Shown here: positions 8,361-42,790 of the stretch, piece by piece | How the letters are laid out: the number at the start of each line of letters is the position of its first letter | Position numbering within the stretch: position 1 is the first letter of the stretch | IMG/VR virus record: IMGVR_UViG_3300035034_001226 | Coordinates: 22,721-86,720 of that record | Strand: one strand, 5' to 3' | DNA length: 64,000 bases | From: a virus | Position numbers and translations under genes: made by a program | The notes under the pieces: model-generated | What the model was told of the DNA's origin: nothing | The model's database searches: none | What the model saw: only the letters and a program-made list of their open reading frames with translations

Positions 8361-10049
8361 TTAGTTATCGTTGTTATAAAAGGCATCCTTATCAGTAGGT
8401 GATGTCACCGTTGACTGATTAGGGTCTAATTTTTCATTTACCCGAGGTTTTGCGTTCTTTATAGCCGCTCGTCTATCTGTCTCCAGATATATCCAACGGG
8501 TCTTTGCAGATGAAAATCTATGAAGCCTTGCTGGTATTCCAGAACGTATAGATGTATATGTCAGTCTGTGATAATCACCATCAGATGGCTTTGCTGGGAA
8601 TTCATCACCTTCAGTATAAGATTCACCATTTGGTGGCATTGCATCAATTCCAAACTGGGCACGTTGACGATCTATCTTTCTTGCAACATCAACACTTCCA
8701 TTTTCACTTGCAAATTCATAGAATGATTCTGGTACATCACCTAGATCAGCATAATCAATACCACGTTCTGGTACATTGGTATTATGTTCAGCTTGTATAC
8801 TTTGGGTTATATCAGACAAGTCTTGATATTTCTTATCGTTATTACCATCATTAATATCAGATACACCGTTTTCATCTATATCTGGTGTTAGTTTACCTGC
8901 AATATCTTGTGTTTCCTGTGATGCCATCATAGGACGGCATATTAATCTCTGCATAGTTGGTATCCAGTTAGGTGTGTAACTGTTAATACTCCATGCAACG
9001 TCGGTAACTTCAACAAATCGCAATACAGCTTTCAAACTTGCACTAAATTGTGTCTCTGCTGGAAGCTGTAAAATATCACCAATAACGAATGGTCTACCCA
9101 ATGAGCCAACTGTTGATGAAAAACTTACTTCTATTATCCATGCATCACTACTTACAAGTCCATTAAATCCCCACTTACTTTGGTTTGCCTGAACATCAAT
9201 AGGTTGATATGAAGCTTTCATTCTAACAGGATTCACATCATAATGTCTATCCCTATTTTCCATAAAGATTTTATCTTGAATATTACTTACCTTAGTAGAT
9301 TCAAAATCAAGCAATTGTAATGCTTGTATTTCCCATGCGTCATCTATACCACCGTTGAATATAACTGGACGCAAACGCCAGTATCTAGAGGGTACACTTC
9401 TCTTGAAGTTTATTTGCACTGTACCATCACAATCAGGAAGATCAACTACCTGAACACCATACCATTTAACACCGTCACTAGAACGCTCTATTCTCGCCCG
9501 TGTGACACGATTTTCAGACCTACAACCTTGACGTATTTTCATTGATGCTACATCCGCCTTAACAAATGTTTCAACACCATATCTACGTCTACCATTATCT
9601 AATAATATTTCACCAAAATCATAACCAATGTATGCCGTATTAATTGCTGAACCGACTTGCAGTGATCGCCATTGTGTTTTTAATAAATCAAATGCATTTG
9701 CTGTTGGGAAATTAGGGTGGTCCCCATTTGATATAGGTGCACCATTACCAGTTAAGTCTTGCAGTTTACCTTGTTCGTGAACACCCAATAACTTGTGCAC
9801 ATTGATTATAGCTCCACCAATTGTTATAACTTCACTCACATAGGAATCAAATAAGCAAGAGTCATCAACAGCATCAGTTAGTTCCCATGCTGGATTAGAC
9901 TGCTCATTCTTACAATGTAATGCTGGATTTAGCGTGTTACATAATTTTGAAACTACGTCATCATCAGGTGGTGGTAAATAATTACCATCACCGTCAACTG
10001 GACAGTTTCCACTATCAAGTAGTGATTCTAGTTGTGATGTTATACTCAT
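8361..10049 (-). CDS. Neck/head-completion protein gp14-like with inserted discoidin (F5/8C)-like domain
   Basis: IQDKIFMENRDRHYD gp14-type motif; internal YIGYDFG...VTRARIERSSDGVKW...SRYWRL...W segment. Confidence 0.65.
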   Translation of the reverse strand: MSITSQLESLLDSGNCPVDGDGNYLPPPDDDVVSKLCNTLNPALHCKNEQSNPAWELTDAVDDSCLFDSYVSEVITIGGAIINVHKLLGVHEQGKLQDLTGNGAPISNGDHPNFPTANAFDLLKTQWRSLQVGSAINTAYIGYDFGEILLDNGRRRYGVETFVKADVASMKIRQGCRSENRVTRARIERSSDGVKWYGVQVVDLPDCDGTVQINFKRSVPSRYWRLRPVIFNGGIDDAWEIQALQLLDFESTKVSNIQDKIFMENRDRHYDVNPVRMKASYQPIDVQANQSKWGFNGLVSSDAWIIEVSFSSTVGSLGRPFVIGDILQLPAETQFSASLKAVLRFVEVTDVAWSINSYTPNWIPTMQRLICRPMMASQETQDIAGKLTPDIDENGVSDINDGNNDKKYQDLSDITQSIQAEHNTNVPERGIDYADLGDVPESFYEFASENGSVDVARKIDRQRAQFGIDAMPPNGESYTEGDEFPAKPSDGDYHRLTYTSIRSGIPARLHRFSSAKTRWIYLETDRRAAIKNAKPRVNEKLDPNQSTVTSPTDKDAFYNNDN

Positions 10050-10050
10050 A

Positions 10051-13000
10051 TTATCCTATTAATATCTGTGATGATGCATCACTGTTATGATCTTGCATTG
10101 ATCTATCCTGTAGCTCAATGGTCAATTCTGACTTTTCATTCTCAGCCTGTGTAATAAGTTCTTGAGAGTTAAGAGTTGTTGAACCATTTGGACCCGGTAG
10201 AGTTTGAAACTTACCACGAACTTGTGATAGTATCATTTTAGCTTCAGCAATAGCCCATTTCTTAATCCACATTGCTAAGTGTCTATTTGTAATTAAACGT
10301 TGTTCTGGAACTTCAATAAATGCATCCAATAATATACGTTCATTATTATAAAACACTTGATGAAAATTAAGTATTCTGGTATCTTCATAAAATGTATATA
10401 CCAAATGATCTGCAAATATGTTACGCAATTCCTCAATATATGAAGATGTTAAATGATATGAAAGTAAATCAAAAGAATTACCTGAGTAAAGTTGTTGTAA
10501 TGCTGCATAACCATAAACATCATATCCGCCAAATGACCCTTGTGAAGCACCTAAGAATCCTGTTCTCATTCTATGACATGCATTAATGTTTGTGATCTTG
10601 TTAAACCCTACACATTTATTAACTAATTCATATCGTTGCTGATTTGGAAATACATCCATAAAGAATAGTACATGTTCATATGAATAACTCGAATATTTTC
10701 TTACCATCAACAATGCATTATTGATGCATTCGTCTAACTGTTGTTTGGTTAATTCTACTGTTGTGCCAACAGACCCAAGAGCAATGCGAATCTGATCTTG
10801 TAGTGCCCTTCTTTCATCTGGTGTACCGTCATCACCAACACCAAGTTCAGAATAACTTGGTCCAGCCTCATTTACACTCTTACCTGTTATTGGTGTGAAG
10901 TGTATAATACTATTTCTTAGATATGAAAAAACACCATTGCCTTTACGATCAAATTCTATTCTCTGTTCACAACCTATTCCGCATGTTTCAAAACGCAATA
11001 TATCTCTACCAAAACGATCAAAATCATTAAATGGTGAAAATAAATCAGTATTAACATCAGGTAAGTCATCCGTACATACGTTACGGTTAAAATGTAATGT
11101 TACTTTTGCCAATCCACAATCCTCAAGCCATGCTGAACCATTCCACTTGTAAAGTTCATCCTCAAATGTGTTGAAGAAATATTCATCCACACTTGGAGCT
11201 AATGATGTTAATGAAAAATCTTTCTCAACCCATGCACCTGAATCACGAAGATATAAAACGTCAGTATTGGTGTCATACCAGTGAATACCATCTGTAATGT
11301 CAAATGGGTCTATTTCACTATTAATTACATCAATTATTGTAAATGTAGAACCATCCCATACATACCATTCACCACTAGTAGTATTTTTCCACACCACACC
11401 CACTGGCAGGTTTGTAGGATCATATTGGCTACATATTGGTATAACATCAGTACAGTTAATTCCAGTAATTCTCTGCAATACATCAGTAGTAGGATTATAC
11501 CACAATGCACCAGACTCTAATGTTGATGGTAATGCAGGGTCTATTTCTGATTGAAAGAAATCTGAAACGCTGTCCCATTCATTATTAACTGCATCCCATT
11601 TAAATATTGTGTCTATTCCTGTAGATACGTTCCACCATAGATCACAGCTAGCACGATCTGTTGGATCACTTGCTGCTATTATTACATTTATGGAAGTCCA
11701 TGCATCGTTGTCAGAATTTCTCTGAAATAATAACTGCTCAGATGGTATAAACCAATAATGATTTGCCGTTGGATTATCTAACTCACCAGAAGCATTTCGT
11801 TCTTCATATCTAATATTAGTAGCTTCTTGCCACTCTGATGAGATTCTATTAAATACCTTTTCCAATTCTGTATTGTACCAAAAGTTACCATCTACTATAC
11901 TATTTGGATTAGTATCCCATACAATAGGATCAACTTCACTCCATGTAGATAATGTGATATCACGATTGAATACAATTCCATTAACTTCATCATACCAATA
12001 TGTTGAACTGTCTAATACTGGTGCCAGTAATGGATTACGTGTTTGTACAAAGAGTGGCTTCTTACACCATGTTGATACTTCCCAAGACCATGCTAATGTA
12101 TTAGAAACATCTAAGTCACCTGAACTTTCAAATGCTTTATTTAACCATACTGCACCATCAGATGGTACCGATGGGTCAGTTGCGTATTCGATTATATTAG
12201 ATACTGTAGTCCAACCAAATGATTCTCTAATTTTTAAAACCGATGTTGATGGTTTATTCCAGTATGTTCCGAGTATTGGTGTTGATGGATCAAAGTCTAA
12301 GAATACAGCATCCTGTAATACATTTTGGGTGCCATCCCATACATATACTTCTTCATCTTCAACCTTAACAAAATAGTTACCAGTGTTTGGAAACTCTACA
12401 CCTTTAGTAGAGTCTACCAGTTTTTTCATTTCTATATTAAGCAATGCTGCCATATCTTCATATGTTTGCATTTTACTTCCAGCCAGACCAGTTAATTCAT
12501 AACAAGCACCATTGATATATAACGTAAGTTTATAATTAGTTCCAACATTAAGACCAGTTGGTTCTTTTACTGTTATACCTTCAGGTGTATCTATTTGTAT
12601 ATCATGGAATGCTGGAGTTGCAGCACCTGCAACATTAGTTTCAGCCTGACCAGTTGGAATACTATATGCGTGAACTCCTTCTCGGAAGTAATTACCTTGT
12701 GCGTCTACCGCATATGCAGAAACATAATATGGTGTTTTATCTACAACATCACTAACTGTTACTGACACTGTTTCACGATCATGATAGAATGCACCAACGA
12801 CTAAAGCAACATTGATATTATCACCAGAGTGCATATCAGTGTCGAAAGTTGGATCAGCCTCATAATAGGTGCCACTTTGGGGTGATGTGGTTATATAGTT
12901 GGCAGGTTTACTACTGACTGTTATGATAATACCATCATAAATTAAGTCGTCAACATTACAACCAGCAATGTTGGGGATATTCCATTTAATAGTTGCAGTA

Positions 13001-35433: not shown

Positions 35434-35510
35434 TGGTGGGCCGGGAAGGACTCGAACCTTCGACCGTGAAATTATGAGTTTCCTACTCTAACCAACTGAG
35501 TTACCGGCCC
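35434..35510 (-). tRNA. tRNA-Ile2 (CAU)
   Basis: GGGCCGG acceptor, GAAA-CTCATAA-TTTC, CCA. Confidence 0.88.
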
Positions 35511-35516
35511 AATGCT

Positions 35517-36665
35517 TTACATGCGGTCCTCTAAATGTAGTGCTGTAGCAACTGGTATACGAGGTTTCAATTTACCCGGTGTTCTGCCGAAGTACCTAAT
35601 TGTAGCCTCTTTGCCAACATAAGCATTACGATTTTCAAATACTTCCTTAAGGTATGTTCTATTACCACGCATACCTGCACCAGTCTCACCACACTCACCT
35701 TGGTTATTCTGAAATATTACACGCTTTGCACAACCAGACCAGTTACCTTGACCTTCTTCAATGCGTACAATAATAAATTCTTCATCTTCAAAGTCTTTAC
35801 GTTTGATAAGAGCATTACTACGCTTCTGAGAATACTCTTCATTTAAACGAATGATACCACCTTCATAACCCTGATCAACAACCATATCATACACAACATC
35901 AATCTCAGCTTCAGACATACACTTATGTGTTTTTACGATTCGAATTGGAGTGTTACAATTATCACCTTCAATTGTAACCGCATTATCAACGAGGATTTTA
36001 ACCACCGCGTCAAAACGTGCAATAAATGGTTGGTCCATAAGATATGGGTAATCATAGATGTGATATTGCATTAATCGGCTAGACTTATCAAGATCATCTT
36101 CAGTTACTTTAACACGCTTGACAATAGAAACTATCTCATTAAAGTCATCTTTGAAATCGTGGTTATAAAGTTCACCATCAAATATAGCATCAGGATTCTC
36201 ATCAAATGCTGGTTGCAGGGCTTCCATGATGTGGGGTGCTGCAACAATAGGCTTACCTGTGCGACTCCACATGCCATGACGTGTTGCAATACAACGGATA
36301 CCATCAAGTTTACCTTGAAAGTAAACAGGTTCGTTGTATTTTAACTTAGATTTACGCTTTTCCCAAGTAGAAGCCAACATAGGTGCAAATATTTTCGGAG
36401 TGTCAACATCCTCAATATTAGAATGGTAATCTACGTCAAGCTTCTTAGTGTAATGTGAAGCAACTTCGGCCTCAGCCTGTTCCTCACCAGTAGTAACATT
36501 GGATCGACCAACGTTTTTTGATTCAGCAGTAGTCCATTCGGATGTTACTTGTTGACCCTCTTGTAGACCTGCAACAGTACGATACTGATCGCCATTTAGT
36601 TGCATTCGCCATTCACGAATGTTGCCTTTACTGTCACGTTTATAGATGGTTGGAAATGTTTTCAT
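35517..36665 (-). CDS. lig: ATP-dependent DNA ligase
   Basis: PMLA, QGKLDGIRC, FDGELY, YEGGIIR, IKRK, OB domain. Confidence 0.92.
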   Translation of the reverse strand: MKTFPTIYKRDSKGNIREWRMQLNGDQYRTVAGLQEGQQVTSEWTTAESKNVGRSNVTTGEEQAEAEVASHYTKKLDVDYHSNIEDVDTPKIFAPMLASTWEKRKSKLKYNEPVYFQGKLDGIRCIATRHGMWSRTGKPIVAAPHIMEALQPAFDENPDAIFDGELYNHDFKDDFNEIVSIVKRVKVTEDDLDKSSRLMQYHIYDYPYLMDQPFIARFDAVVKILVDNAVTIEGDNCNTPIRIVKTHKCMSEAEIDVVYDMVVDQGYEGGIIRLNEEYSQKRSNALIKRKDFEDEEFIIVRIEEGQGNWSGCAKRVIFQNNQGECGETGAGMRGNRTYLKEVFENRNAYVGKEATIRYFGRTPGKLKPRIPVATALHLEDRM

Positions 36666-36729
36666 TTTATAATCCTTGTGTATTTGAATGAAGTATATAA
36701 TACTGATGATGTATTGTCAAGTATCTTAA

Positions 36730-37088
36730 GCATTAGAATATGAGTAATCGGTTAGGAACGTCTGGACATCTTTAAATCTTGCCGTTCCATTAAAGTGTTG
36801 GTATCACCTGTCTCGATAGGTCCAACGGCCAACGACACACCCGATTTCAAACATATTTTGGTGTATATGCTTCGCTCTGAACTCACCCACATATACTGCT
36901 CAAGCGTGTAATTTATCCTCAAGTCAGAGAGCGTCCGTCAGGATAATACACGCTGTGTAACGTTTCCAAAATCGATTTAGTTAGATATGTTACCCGAAGG
37001 TGGTTTAGGTCTTCGGTATGATATTTTGTGATGTTCAATTCACCTCGGTCTTACCCGTCCACATAAACCAATAACATATCTAACTAAT
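36730..37088 (-). ncRNA. Unknown ~350-nt structured RNA with its own promoter
   Basis: No ORF; 16-bp perfect inverted repeat 36977-36992/37072-37087; further long stems and loop-loop complementarity. Confidence 0.65.
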
Positions 37089-37094
37089 TTTAAA

Positions 37095-37122
37095 AGTATA
37101 ACAGTTTAAATATCAATGTCAA
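37095..37122 (-). promoter_or_regulatory. sigma70-like promoter
   Basis: TTGACA-16-TATACT directly upstream of the structured region. Confidence 0.65.
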
Positions 37123-37316
37123 GAATTTTTTTGTTTTCTATTCCACGCCTTCTTTGAGGTATAATCATGAATATTGATAGATAGCTTTGAATAATTTGTC
37201 AAGGCCATTAGTGGGTGGGCTATTATATCATGTAGCATAGCCCATCCACGATGTTCATTATAATCAATACAATGCTTTTGTGGATCAATTTTCATGAAAG
37301 AATTATACCACACCAA
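37119..37316 (-). CDS. Hypothetical protein
   Basis: 65-aa ORF. Confidence 0.5.
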   Translation of the reverse strand: MVWYNSFMKIDPQKHCIDYNEHRGWAMLHDIIAHPLMALTNYSKLSINIHDYTSKKAWNRKQKNS

Positions 37317-37344
37317 AAACTATAAGTAAATAGTGTGGTTTAAT

Positions 37345-37686
37345 TTATGCAATCATAAGTGCATATGTAACATATAGACATGTCATATGGATTGCTTGAT
37401 CGAATCCAATAGTACCAAAAAATAATCTCTGGTTACCTACTTTATTAAAATGTCCTGAGACTTTAGATGTAATGAAGTCAGTTATCCAGTGTAGTACAAA
37501 GTTTAGTAGTGCATACTGCCAACCAAACCATAGCAATGGTAATGAATAAATAAATACATGAAATGTTAACCATTTCAAACTTGATCCCTTATTCATTGCC
37601 ATCTTGTTTATTTGGCAAACAAAGTCACCAAAAAAATGCATCCAAACTAAAAGTATAATATCTGTAATCATAATATGAACCTCCAT
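37345..37686 (-). CDS. DUF3307 membrane protein
   Basis: HFFGDFVCQ, HVFIY, HWITD, IGFDQAIH. Confidence 0.8.
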   Translation of the reverse strand: MEVHIMITDIILLVWMHFFGDFVCQINKMAMNKGSSLKWLTFHVFIYSLPLLWFGWQYALLNFVLHWITDFITSKVSGHFNKVGNQRLFFGTIGFDQAIHMTCLYVTYALMIA

Positions 37687-37883
37687 TGGTCGTTGTTCAT
37701 AATACTATTTACGTATACAAGTTACTTAAGTTCTTAATAAATAAGGGGTTTTGTGAACCATGTCACATTAAGACATGGTTCAGTTCACAGTTTGAGAATT
37801 TTCTAGTTCATCTAATCTATAAGATAAGGCTGATGCTAATAAATTAGCATCAGATTTGTACATTCCTGCACTATTGATACAGT

Positions 37884-38657
37884 TCAATTCAATGACCTTA
37901 TTAATAATTTACATTCATGTAAACGTTTAAATTCCATTATACCTAATTCGTCAATCTTAGATTTTTTCCATATTTCATCCCGGTTCGGATGCTTTCGCCA
38001 AGTAGTGTGGGATATTTCAAATTCATTATCTGCATTCTGTGCAGACATCCACAGTTCACCAAATTTATCATCAACATATCCAGCATTACTAGTAATAATA
38101 CATTTTGCTCCTAGACACAACATTGGATTTATTGATTCCCAAAAATAACATGCTTGCTCTAACGATACATTTGAAAAATTATCAATATATAATAAATCTA
38201 ATGATAATCCTTTACATGAATGTGCACTTGCTTGGTTGGCATGTATAGATGAGCCATTATCAAATTTAATTTTAGTCTTATCATATGTTACTATATCTTG
38301 GCGGATAAAGTCTGGACATGATTCATGGGCTGTTCTTATAATATTTATGAAATCCCTAGCATGATCCCACTCACTACATGCAATTAATATTTTACTATTT
38401 GGTACGAACATAGCATACCACAACATGTACATTAGTGATACTGTGGTTTTCCCCATATCTTCACCCATCAAATTAATCGAATCTTTACAATCACGATAAA
38501 CATCTAACAAACAAAATTGGTGTTCATAAGGTATAAATTTAATTAAGCCTTTGTTTGGATGTTCTATGTATATAAACTCAGAAATAAAATATTCTGGACC
38601 ATATATCGGATCAGTGCATTGTGTTAATTGAACGTTTTCATTTTTAGTTAATATCAT
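37884..38657 (-). CDS. Second terminase ATPase-domain paralog, catalytically altered
   Basis: Colinear with residues ~20-265 of the gp17 at 485-2047; GEDMGKT, LLYIDNF, CIITSN. Confidence 0.8.
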   Translation of the reverse strand: MILTKNENVQLTQCTDPIYGPEYFISEFIYIEHPNKGLIKFIPYEHQFCLLDVYRDCKDSINLMGEDMGKTTVSLMYMLWYAMFVPNSKILIACSEWDHARDFINIIRTAHESCPDFIRQDIVTYDKTKIKFDNGSSIHANQASAHSCKGLSLDLLYIDNFSNVSLEQACYFWESINPMLCLGAKCIITSNAGYVDDKFGELWMSAQNADNEFEISHTTWRKHPNRDEIWKKSKIDELGIMEFKRLHECKLLIRSLN

Positions 38658-41939: not shown

Positions 41940-42790
41940 AATAAACGCTGAGATTATACGTTTTAGTAGTGACCTTTAATTCCCGTACCATATCCCTTGC
42001 GAGGATAGTTAAGAACTTATCCATATAAACGCTATTAAGCTGCCTATATATTCACTAATGCTGCCTTGTTAAAGTGTGGCGTTTCACTTGTCATAACATA
42101 CTACTCGTCCAGTCTTATTACGTCTGGTCACCCAGTTAAACTCCGCTAAAAGTCTACGTACTCTTTCTAAACAAATATCATCAGCTTGCGGCCTTTGACA
42201 CACTCCATTCCAAATGGTGGAGTATTAAGCATTTTTAGTATGCTACCGGAATGGTCTTTGCGTTTTAATCAATAGTAGGACTTGAACCTACATACGATTC
42301 CTTTTGAGGGAATTGCCTAATCCAATTTGGCTATATTGTAACCTACTAAGATGTGCCATTCCTGTCGCTACATATCTTGTTAGATACGTAATACAACACA
42401 CCTCCTATCTTTCGTCTTGCGAACTACTCGATATCCTTTCACGATTATGGCTCTTACACCAATATCGTTCAAAATGATAGCTGCCCTTTCCTGCGAAAGA
42501 TCGGACTAATCCATCTACACATTAGAATCCCACTATGGTTAGGTTGATTTGTTCAGCTTGGCTATCACACCAATTCATGTCTCGCGGAGCCGTCTGACAC
42601 TATCCTTTCGGACTAAAACCCTAACTTACAGTTTATCGCTGCCTTAACAACGCGGCTAACTTAGAACCGAAGTTCATATTGCCTATCCTGTGCTTGCATA
42701 TATAGACCCTTACGGGTGATGGCGTGTAGGACGCTCATCTTTTTAAGTGTTACCACTTATTGTCTTATTGAGGATATGCCCCCAAATTCT
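41940..42790 (-). ncRNA. Large ornate RNA, GOLLD-like, with embedded tRNA-like domain
   Basis: ~850 nt without ORF between tRNA genes; many GNRA/UUCG hairpins; promoter at 42835-42862. Confidence 0.65.
42267..42341 (-). tRNA. tRNA-like domain (CAA anticodon) inside the large RNA
   Basis: ATTCC-CTCAAAA-GGAAT arm, GTAGG-TTCAAGT-CCTAC; 5-bp acceptor, no CCA. Confidence 0.6.

Follow-up and report, generated by a model that had tools for sequence, protein, structure and literature searches.

The 64-kb window studied here, meaning the whole stretch of DNA that was analysed, is part of a 105-kb IMG/VR virus record that is ~30% complete. The record encodes a T4-type major capsid protein and a large terminase, and its source is a T4-like lake jumbo phage. 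Using Rfam models at gathering thresholds, we found ~39 tRNA genes and one GOLLD RNA in the window, all on the minus strand. The folded stretch described below (36730-37090) lies in this tRNA/RNA island, and the order is promoter P1, folded stretch, promoter P2, ligase gene and tRNA-Met. A terminase-ATPase paralog gene without the nuclease is found ~800 nt upstream. The GC content over most of the folded stretch is 0.40-0.44, as against ~0.31 in the upstream small-gene flank, and is similar to that of the ligase gene (0.35-0.45). In T4-type phages, variable genes are gathered in hyperplastic regions in which orphan units between early promoters are shuffled (PMC2839356, PMC4122927). The features of the locus are as follows:

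41945-42404, minus strand: GOLLD RNA (Rfam match), 5 kb from the folded stretch
37686-37345, minus strand: DUF3307 gene, upstream of the orphan frame
37330-37302, minus strand: promoter P0, preceding the 58-codon orphan frame
37316-37119 (58-codon form 37295-37119), minus strand: 58/65-codon orphan frame, between the DUF3307 gene and the folded stretch
37122-37095, minus strand: promoter P1 (TTGACA, 16-nt spacer with extended TG, TATACT; 11 of 12 consensus matches)
36720-36692, minus strand: promoter P2 (TTGACA, 17-nt spacer, TATACT), directly ahead of the ligase gene and at the downstream edge of the cassette
36665-35517, minus strand: ATP-dependent DNA ligase gene, directly downstream of the folded stretch
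35510-35434, minus strand: tRNA-Met (ARAGORN), right after the ligase gene

P1 belongs to a strongly strand-biased set of promoters. At a cut-off of at least 11 of 12 consensus matches, the window contains 22 near-consensus sigma-70 promoters on the coding (minus) strand and 2 on the plus strand. Many of the 22 directly follow a tRNA gene or precede a ribosome-binding site; one, of the same type as P1, is found just upstream of the GOLLD region. Because of these positions we take them as real early promoters. The initial annotation had called the RNA promoter-driven, which the membership of P1 in this set makes credible. The predicted start of the P1 transcript, at ~37088, falls about 1-3 nt before the foot of a 17-bp helix. 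The promoters lying directly behind tRNA genes also imply that many short early transcription units are spread across the tRNA island.

Between positions 36000 and 38000, a scan for minus-strand terminator-like sites recovered none 3' of the folded stretch and none adjoining P0, P1 or P2, so that transcription from P1 would continue into the ligase gene. The sole minus-strand site in this interval is a 10-bp terminator-like hairpin at 37853-37830, directly 3' of the terminase-ATPase paralog gene. On the plus strand, the CCGAAG/CTTCGG hairpin (36994-37016) with its T-rich tail scores as terminator-like; no plus-strand gene ends there.

Folded as minus-strand RNA, the whole 361 nt have a predicted energy of -99.4 kcal/mol (z = -2.86), with the following elements:

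37090-36974, minus strand: domain 1 (z = -5.28; 0 of 200 shuffles fold as well)
37087-37071 / 36993-36977, minus strand: closing helix of domain 1, 17 bp (16-bp perfect repeat plus a G-U pair)
37057-37046 (CGG/CCG), 37043-37028 (GUGA/UCAC) and 37016-36994 (CCGAAG/CUUCGG), minus strand: small hairpins of domain 1
37007-37001 (loop UAAACCA) and 37070-37064 (UGGUUUA), minus strand: candidate pseudoknot of domain 1, 7 bp
36972-36856, minus strand: domain 2 (z = -3.08; 3 of 200 shuffles fold as well)
36971-36966 / 36861-36856, minus strand: closing helix of domain 2 (UUUUGG/CCAAAA)
36954-36903, minus strand: hairpin of domain 2, 15 bp with a 2-nt bulge (loop CGCUCU, 36933-36928)
36896-36863, minus strand: hairpin of domain 2, 8 bp (loop AGAGCG, 36878-36873)
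36860-36735, minus strand: 3' stretch (z = -0.88; 35 of 200 shuffles fold as well), overlapping a 46/56-codon frame

When overlapping 120-nt windows along the minus strand were ranked by GC-corrected stability, domain 1 came fifth of 2,130. The windows placed second and third are close by on the upstream side (37360-37241 and 37870-37751); the latter contains the terminator-like hairpin of the terminase-ATPase paralog gene. The arms of the closing helix (37087-37072 / 36992-36977) are separated by a 79-bp spacer and form one of only two perfect 16-bp inverted repeats in 64 kb. They correspond to the perfect 16-bp helix that had been described at the 5' end, and an additional G-U pair makes it 17 bp. 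The second long hairpin, with its CGCTCT loop, and the GTATATG/CATATAC hairpin, with its AGAGCG loop, were both located as described, and their loops are complementary. The proposed extent of ~350 nt is not borne out: the last third folds no better than shuffles, no minus-strand terminator-like site follows the RNA within 36000-38000, and the well-supported folded part is ~235 nt (37088-36856). The sequences of the three pairings reported in the 3' domain (GCCGTT/AACGGC, TGGAC/GTCCA and GGAACG/CGTTCC) are present, but they lie in the stretch with z = -0.88 and are partly exclusive, since GGAACG overlaps AACGGC by four bases and two of the three therefore cannot coexist.

The match between GGTTTA and TAAACC in the loop of the CCGAAG/CTTCGG hairpin is likewise present, and a 7-bp match of this kind arises by chance in 1.5% of loop shuffles (p ~0.015). 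The minimum-energy fold of domain 1 instead nests the GGUUUA/UAAACC pairing, which extends the long helix and competes with the CCGAAG hairpin; as modelled, the pseudoknot and the alternative nested fold are indistinguishable. The 6-bp match between the two loops of domain 2 (duplex of -7.8 kcal/mol) arises in 4.3% of loop shuffles (p ~0.043). The label "multi-pseudoknot" claims more than these matches bear, as they are complementarities within a single sequence and of marginal significance (p ~0.015 and ~0.04). The plus strand folds as well, with z = -4.89 for domain 1, z = -1.77 for domain 2 and z = -2.19 for the 3' part. Since the stems are almost purely Watson-Crick and the plus strand also folds, the fold alone cannot separate an RNA from palindromes at the DNA level.

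All six reading frames are closed in the folded stretch except one, a 56-codon TTG (46-codon ATG) frame at 36922-36752 on the minus strand. The earlier statement that no ORF exists is thus nearly right, apart from this frame: it was called by a gene caller on an independent assembly, as was the 58-codon frame upstream. The frame at 36922-36752 has no Shine-Dalgarno sequence, and its ATG, as read from the sequence, is part of a hairpin stem. Searched exhaustively against 1.8 billion representative proteins, it matched itself and, by chance, 19 residues that are repeated 18 times in a tandem-repeat protein, and nothing else. The idea of a pseudogene was discarded after tblastn with the neighbouring ORFs of relatives and a six-frame reading recovered no relic. 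For the 58/65-codon upstream frame, no homolog was found among 5.8 billion proteins; its 58-codon form lacks a Shine-Dalgarno sequence, and only a few bases separate its first codon from the predicted P0 start. The RNA of the 58-codon frame is predicted to fold into a domain of its own at 37297-37165, closed by a helix and including a 13-bp hairpin (z = -2.99), and the whole 573 nt from 37297 to 36725 reach z = -4.36. In these models, 37119-37330 may encode a second RNA behind its own promoter instead of a protein, and the non-coding folded tract may be larger, with two promoter-headed units.

The comparison with Rfam that the initial annotation had proposed gave no family match, so no known class is assigned, in agreement with its description of the RNA as of unknown class. 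We used the 4,227 models of Rfam 15, which include GOLLD, ROOL, raiA, OLE, HEARO, manA, pRNA, RNase P and 6S, as well as group I/II introns, self-cleaving ribozymes and riboswitches. At gathering thresholds across the whole window, no family was found at 36730-37090. With permissive filters and E up to 10, positions 36400-37500 returned two chance matches, both outside the RNA body. ARAGORN and the Rfam tRNA model detect no tRNA or tmRNA in the folded stretch; ARAGORN reports only the tRNA-Met at 35434-35510. For a riboswitch or cis-regulatory leader, no expression platform coupled to the fold was seen: within 36000-38000 no minus-strand terminator-like site follows the RNA, and P2, a promoter in its own right, separates the fold from the start of the ligase gene. 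The folded stretch fails every family test that could be run. We class it with the orphan structured RNA candidates of phages; a one-off RNA gene is plausible but unproven.

The search for homologs that had been suggested as a further check yielded none in GenBank phages, IMG/VR, JGI metagenomes or GTDB genomes, and the fold is therefore without covariation support from these collections. Queries of 441 and 656 nt had no blastn match among 50,697 GenBank phages, and nhmmer and blastn recovered nothing from 24 ligase loci and 3 DUF3307 loci. In 18 whole IMG/VR records whose capsid proteins are 55-87% identical, BLAST recovered only 14-nt chance matches. Single-sequence covariance models of domains 1 and 2 (R1 and R2) match only themselves in the phage's own genome, in 30 loci and in 40 virus records (18 with capsid relatives and 22 with ligase relatives). 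Motif scans of IMG/VR, JGI metagenomes and GTDB genomes returned chance matches only, in unrelated and apparently coding DNA. Among the matches rejected, one (L027) lies within an apparent coding stretch, one (L070) is a helicase Walker-A codon run, and five (L060-L064) have only a 20-mer in common and come from two unrelated groups of near-identical contigs. The gap between rIII and the gene-30 cluster in the T4-type phage RB69 was also rejected, being unrelated by R1 and folding no better than shuffles. The same phage was also assembled as an ENA contig and as a Logan contig; both match the region at 100% identity, and by sequence comparison 37340-36690 is unique to this phage genotype.

The folded stretch is single-copy in the 105-kb record. 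The best repeat in the phage's own genome (E = 0.007 in that genome) is a 19/20 copy of RNA positions 12-31 (ATATGTTATTGGTTTATGTG) at G000:C1:9965-9984, outside the window and inverted in its genomic orientation. It is found on the plus strand inside an ORF (9792-10262). The copy is same-sense and was therefore rejected as an antisense target; it may be a chance match or a recombination scar.

The neighbourhood of the folded stretch differs in related phages. Ligase homologs at 78, 66, 62 and 60% identity all have different neighbours, the gene in front of the ligase being one of 61 codons, an EF-Tu-like gene, or one of 272 or 99 residues. Homologs of DUF3307 at 81, 78, 69 and 67% identity are followed by a kinase-like ORF or by other genes. 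The kinase-like ORF (L067:432-917) belongs to the relative with the 81% identical DUF3307 and takes the position that the orphan frame and the RNA occupy in the studied phage; its product resembles protein kinases and has the glycine-loop motif GSGNFGSV. In a related phage (Logan ERR10503196), the ligase gene is directly preceded by a gene for a 395-aa EF-Tu-like protein with all three EF-Tu domains and is followed by PTH2. The IMG/VR scans gave no relatives of the terminase-ATPase paralog or of YqeY. The closest ligase relative has an ORF-free spacer without such a fold (z = -0.25), and two relatives whose ligase is 51% identical carry tRNAs and ORF-poor gaps upstream of the ligase gene.

Several known phage RNAs invite comparison. 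The species 1 and 2 RNAs of T4 (rnaC and rnaD) are stable non-tRNA RNAs of the tRNA cluster, processed from longer transcripts and of unknown function. The folded stretch resembles them as a candidate non-tRNA RNA encoded in a T4-type tRNA region; it differs in having its own promoter, in being larger and in showing no similarity to any GenBank phage searched. The phi29 pRNA (RF00044) is a packaging RNA that oligomerises through two complementary loops. Here, too, neighbouring hairpin loops are mutually complementary, and the terminase-ATPase paralog gene is close by; however, the folded stretch has no match to the pRNA model, and the ATPase paralog is without an IMG/VR relative. No T4-type packaging motor is known to employ an RNA.

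A parallel in setting is provided by GOLLD (RF02032) and ROOL (RF03087), which are large and ornate, occur in the tRNA regions of phages and prophages and form RNA-only homo-oligomers (PMC12286853). The folded stretch lies in a tRNA/RNA island, 5 kb from the phage's own GOLLD and behind its own promoter of the same type, and it shares with these RNAs multi-domain, helix-closed folds, complementary loops able to join copies and the lack of a known function. It differs in that no covariance model matches it at E up to 10 and in its much smaller well-folded part of ~235 nt. GOLLD and ROOL are widespread families, whereas the folded stretch is a singleton, and the collections and 40 virus records searched revealed no conserved family with covariation. 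To set against homo-oligomers, its sequence offers only the 6-bp loop-loop complementarity (p ~0.04). The surroundings also recall PeSLs, short repeated promoter-terminator motifs flanking protein ORFans (PMC2839356, PMC4122927). Here, too, an orphan unit that varies from one related phage to another is flanked by near-consensus sigma-70 promoters of the early type and stands in a hyperplastic region beside variable units, and such a setting accounts for a folded stretch without synteny. The bracketed unit differs from those flanked by PeSLs in being ORF-free and folded. In the listed flanks of the 22 promoters, nothing beyond the hexamers was seen to be shared, whether as sequence or as the repeated terminator-like stem-loop that PeSLs join to their promoter.

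We tentatively rank first the reading that the stretch is a one-off, cassette-borne, early-transcribed structured RNA in a variable tRNA/RNA island. Several observations speak for it: P1 is part of a strand-biased promoter set (22 versus 2) with one member near GOLLD; the predicted start falls at the foot of the closing helix; both domains fold above chance, domain 1 being fifth of 2,130; the GC content exceeds that of the upstream small-gene flank; the frames are closed except for one short frame without a ribosome-binding site or homologs; and the island holds ~39 tRNAs and a GOLLD RNA, while the ligase region of a relative has tRNAs and ORF-poor gaps. Other observations speak against it. 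The sequence comparisons recovered no homolog, and hence no covariation or sign of selection. The long helices contain almost nothing but Watson-Crick pairs, and the plus strand of domain 1 folds just as well (z = -4.89); a DNA-level element or a recent inverted repeat would look no different. There is no terminator or defined 3' end, and the last third is not significantly folded.

Two other explanations are nearly as likely as an RNA cassette and have to be treated as serious rivals. One, for which we see a real if doubtful case, is that the stretch is transcribed filler, a young and fast-evolving hyperplastic spacer that was introduced or scrambled when early-promoter cassettes recombined, in which replication template switching made the perfect inverted repeats and the fold follows from the palindromes, not from selection. 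The folded stretch and the neighbouring orphan frame are both singletons, homologs of the flanking genes (78-60% identity for the ligase, 81-67% for DUF3307) have other neighbours, and the perfect stems contain almost no G-U pairs, with domain 1 folding equally on both strands; in the hyperplastic regions of T4-type phages, shuffling of orphan cassettes between promoter motifs is also known (PMC4122927, PMC2839356). However, accident would have to account for three or four separate long helices, for two closing helices and for a start at a helix foot, which is asking much; the GC content is above that of the neighbouring small genes, and the ORF-free spacer of the closest ligase relative, with its z of -0.25, has no such fold. 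The other rival, which we consider rather doubtful, makes the P1 transcript a long structured 5' leader of the ligase gene and tRNA-Met. Its 5' helix would stabilise the message, and its long duplexes (17 + 7 bp stacked, and 15 bp) would be RNase III-type processing or insulation sites. In T7 early RNA, intercistronic hairpins serve as RNase III-type processing sites, and the duplexes here would come near the length that RNase III requires. The order of P1, RNA, P2, ligase and tRNA-Met and the lack of a terminator-like site between the RNA and the ligase gene fit such a leader. It is harder to reconcile with P2, a near-consensus promoter that the ligase gene has immediately upstream, with the ligase genes of relatives, which are without any such leader, and with the sequence as read by eye, in which no pairing with the ligase ribosome-binding site was noticed.

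A function of the palindromes in the DNA itself appears improbable. They would be sites where proteins of recombination, homing or a replication origin bind or cut, or else they would mark both ends of a miniature mobile element, and the RNA fold would be a by-product. The perfect 16-bp arms with their 79-bp spacer, the equal folding of domain 1 on both strands and the location in a variable region are what such an element might look like. Against this, it is present in a single copy in the 105-kb record and was found nowhere else, no flanking target duplication was noticed on reading the sequence, the neighbouring genes scanned include no nuclease or transposase, and domain 2 is strand-asymmetric (z = -3.08 versus -1.77). 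We consider it very improbable that the 46/56-codon frame and the 58-codon upstream frame are real orphan genes with incidental folds. Although both were called on the independent assembly, neither has the Shine-Dalgarno sequence seen in the phage's other genes, the ATG of the 46-codon frame is buried in a hairpin stem, and the searches of 5.8 billion and 1.8 billion proteins gave no homologs; by a rough estimate, chance alone would give about one frame this long in every two such stretches.

For the RNA cassette that we rank first, we infer transcription, processing, stability and any function in trans. Host RNA polymerase would transcribe the cassette early, from P1. The 17-bp 5' helix, 1-3 nt from the start, could shield the RNA from 5'-end-dependent decay; in E. 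coli, 5'-terminal stem-loops reportedly protect RNA against decay, as work by Emory, Bouvet and Belasco in 1992 is said to have found. The first ~235 nt, with their two helix-closed domains, would be the functional body of a stable non-coding RNA. Its 3' end might be made by processing of a read-through transcript, as in the stable RNAs of the T4 tRNA cluster; we propose processing because no minus-strand terminator-like site lies downstream between 36000 and 38000. The RNA could then act in trans by offering a folded binding surface to a protein or another RNA, and the CGCUCU and AGAGCG loops may bring both hairpins of domain 2 together or link one copy to another. A bolder version, in which the RNA would be the founding and so far sole member of a new phage RNA class whose complementary loops join copies into rings or higher assemblies, on the model of phi29 pRNA or of the cages of GOLLD and ROOL, and which may work with the terminase-ATPase paralog, seems to us highly unlikely.

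Should the RNA prove real, the RNA islands of jumbo phages, which already hold GOLLD, tRNA look-alikes and other orphan RNAs, would gain a further uncatalogued folded member, and it would follow that RNAs of this sort, as is the case for orphan protein genes, can be carried on cassettes and be specific to a strain. At present its main value is as a flagged single-sequence candidate, with the models R1 and R2 available for future closer relatives. Other ORF-poor sequence was seen in a relative (record G002), where two stretches (L058:83-508 and L058:1258-1380) lie between tRNA genes upstream of the ligase gene. They were rejected as counterparts of the folded stretch on account of their different architecture. 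They carry several T-arm-like GGTTCGAATCC hairpins, the 426-nt one (83-508) has z = -2.61, and they look like oversized or composite tRNA-like RNAs.
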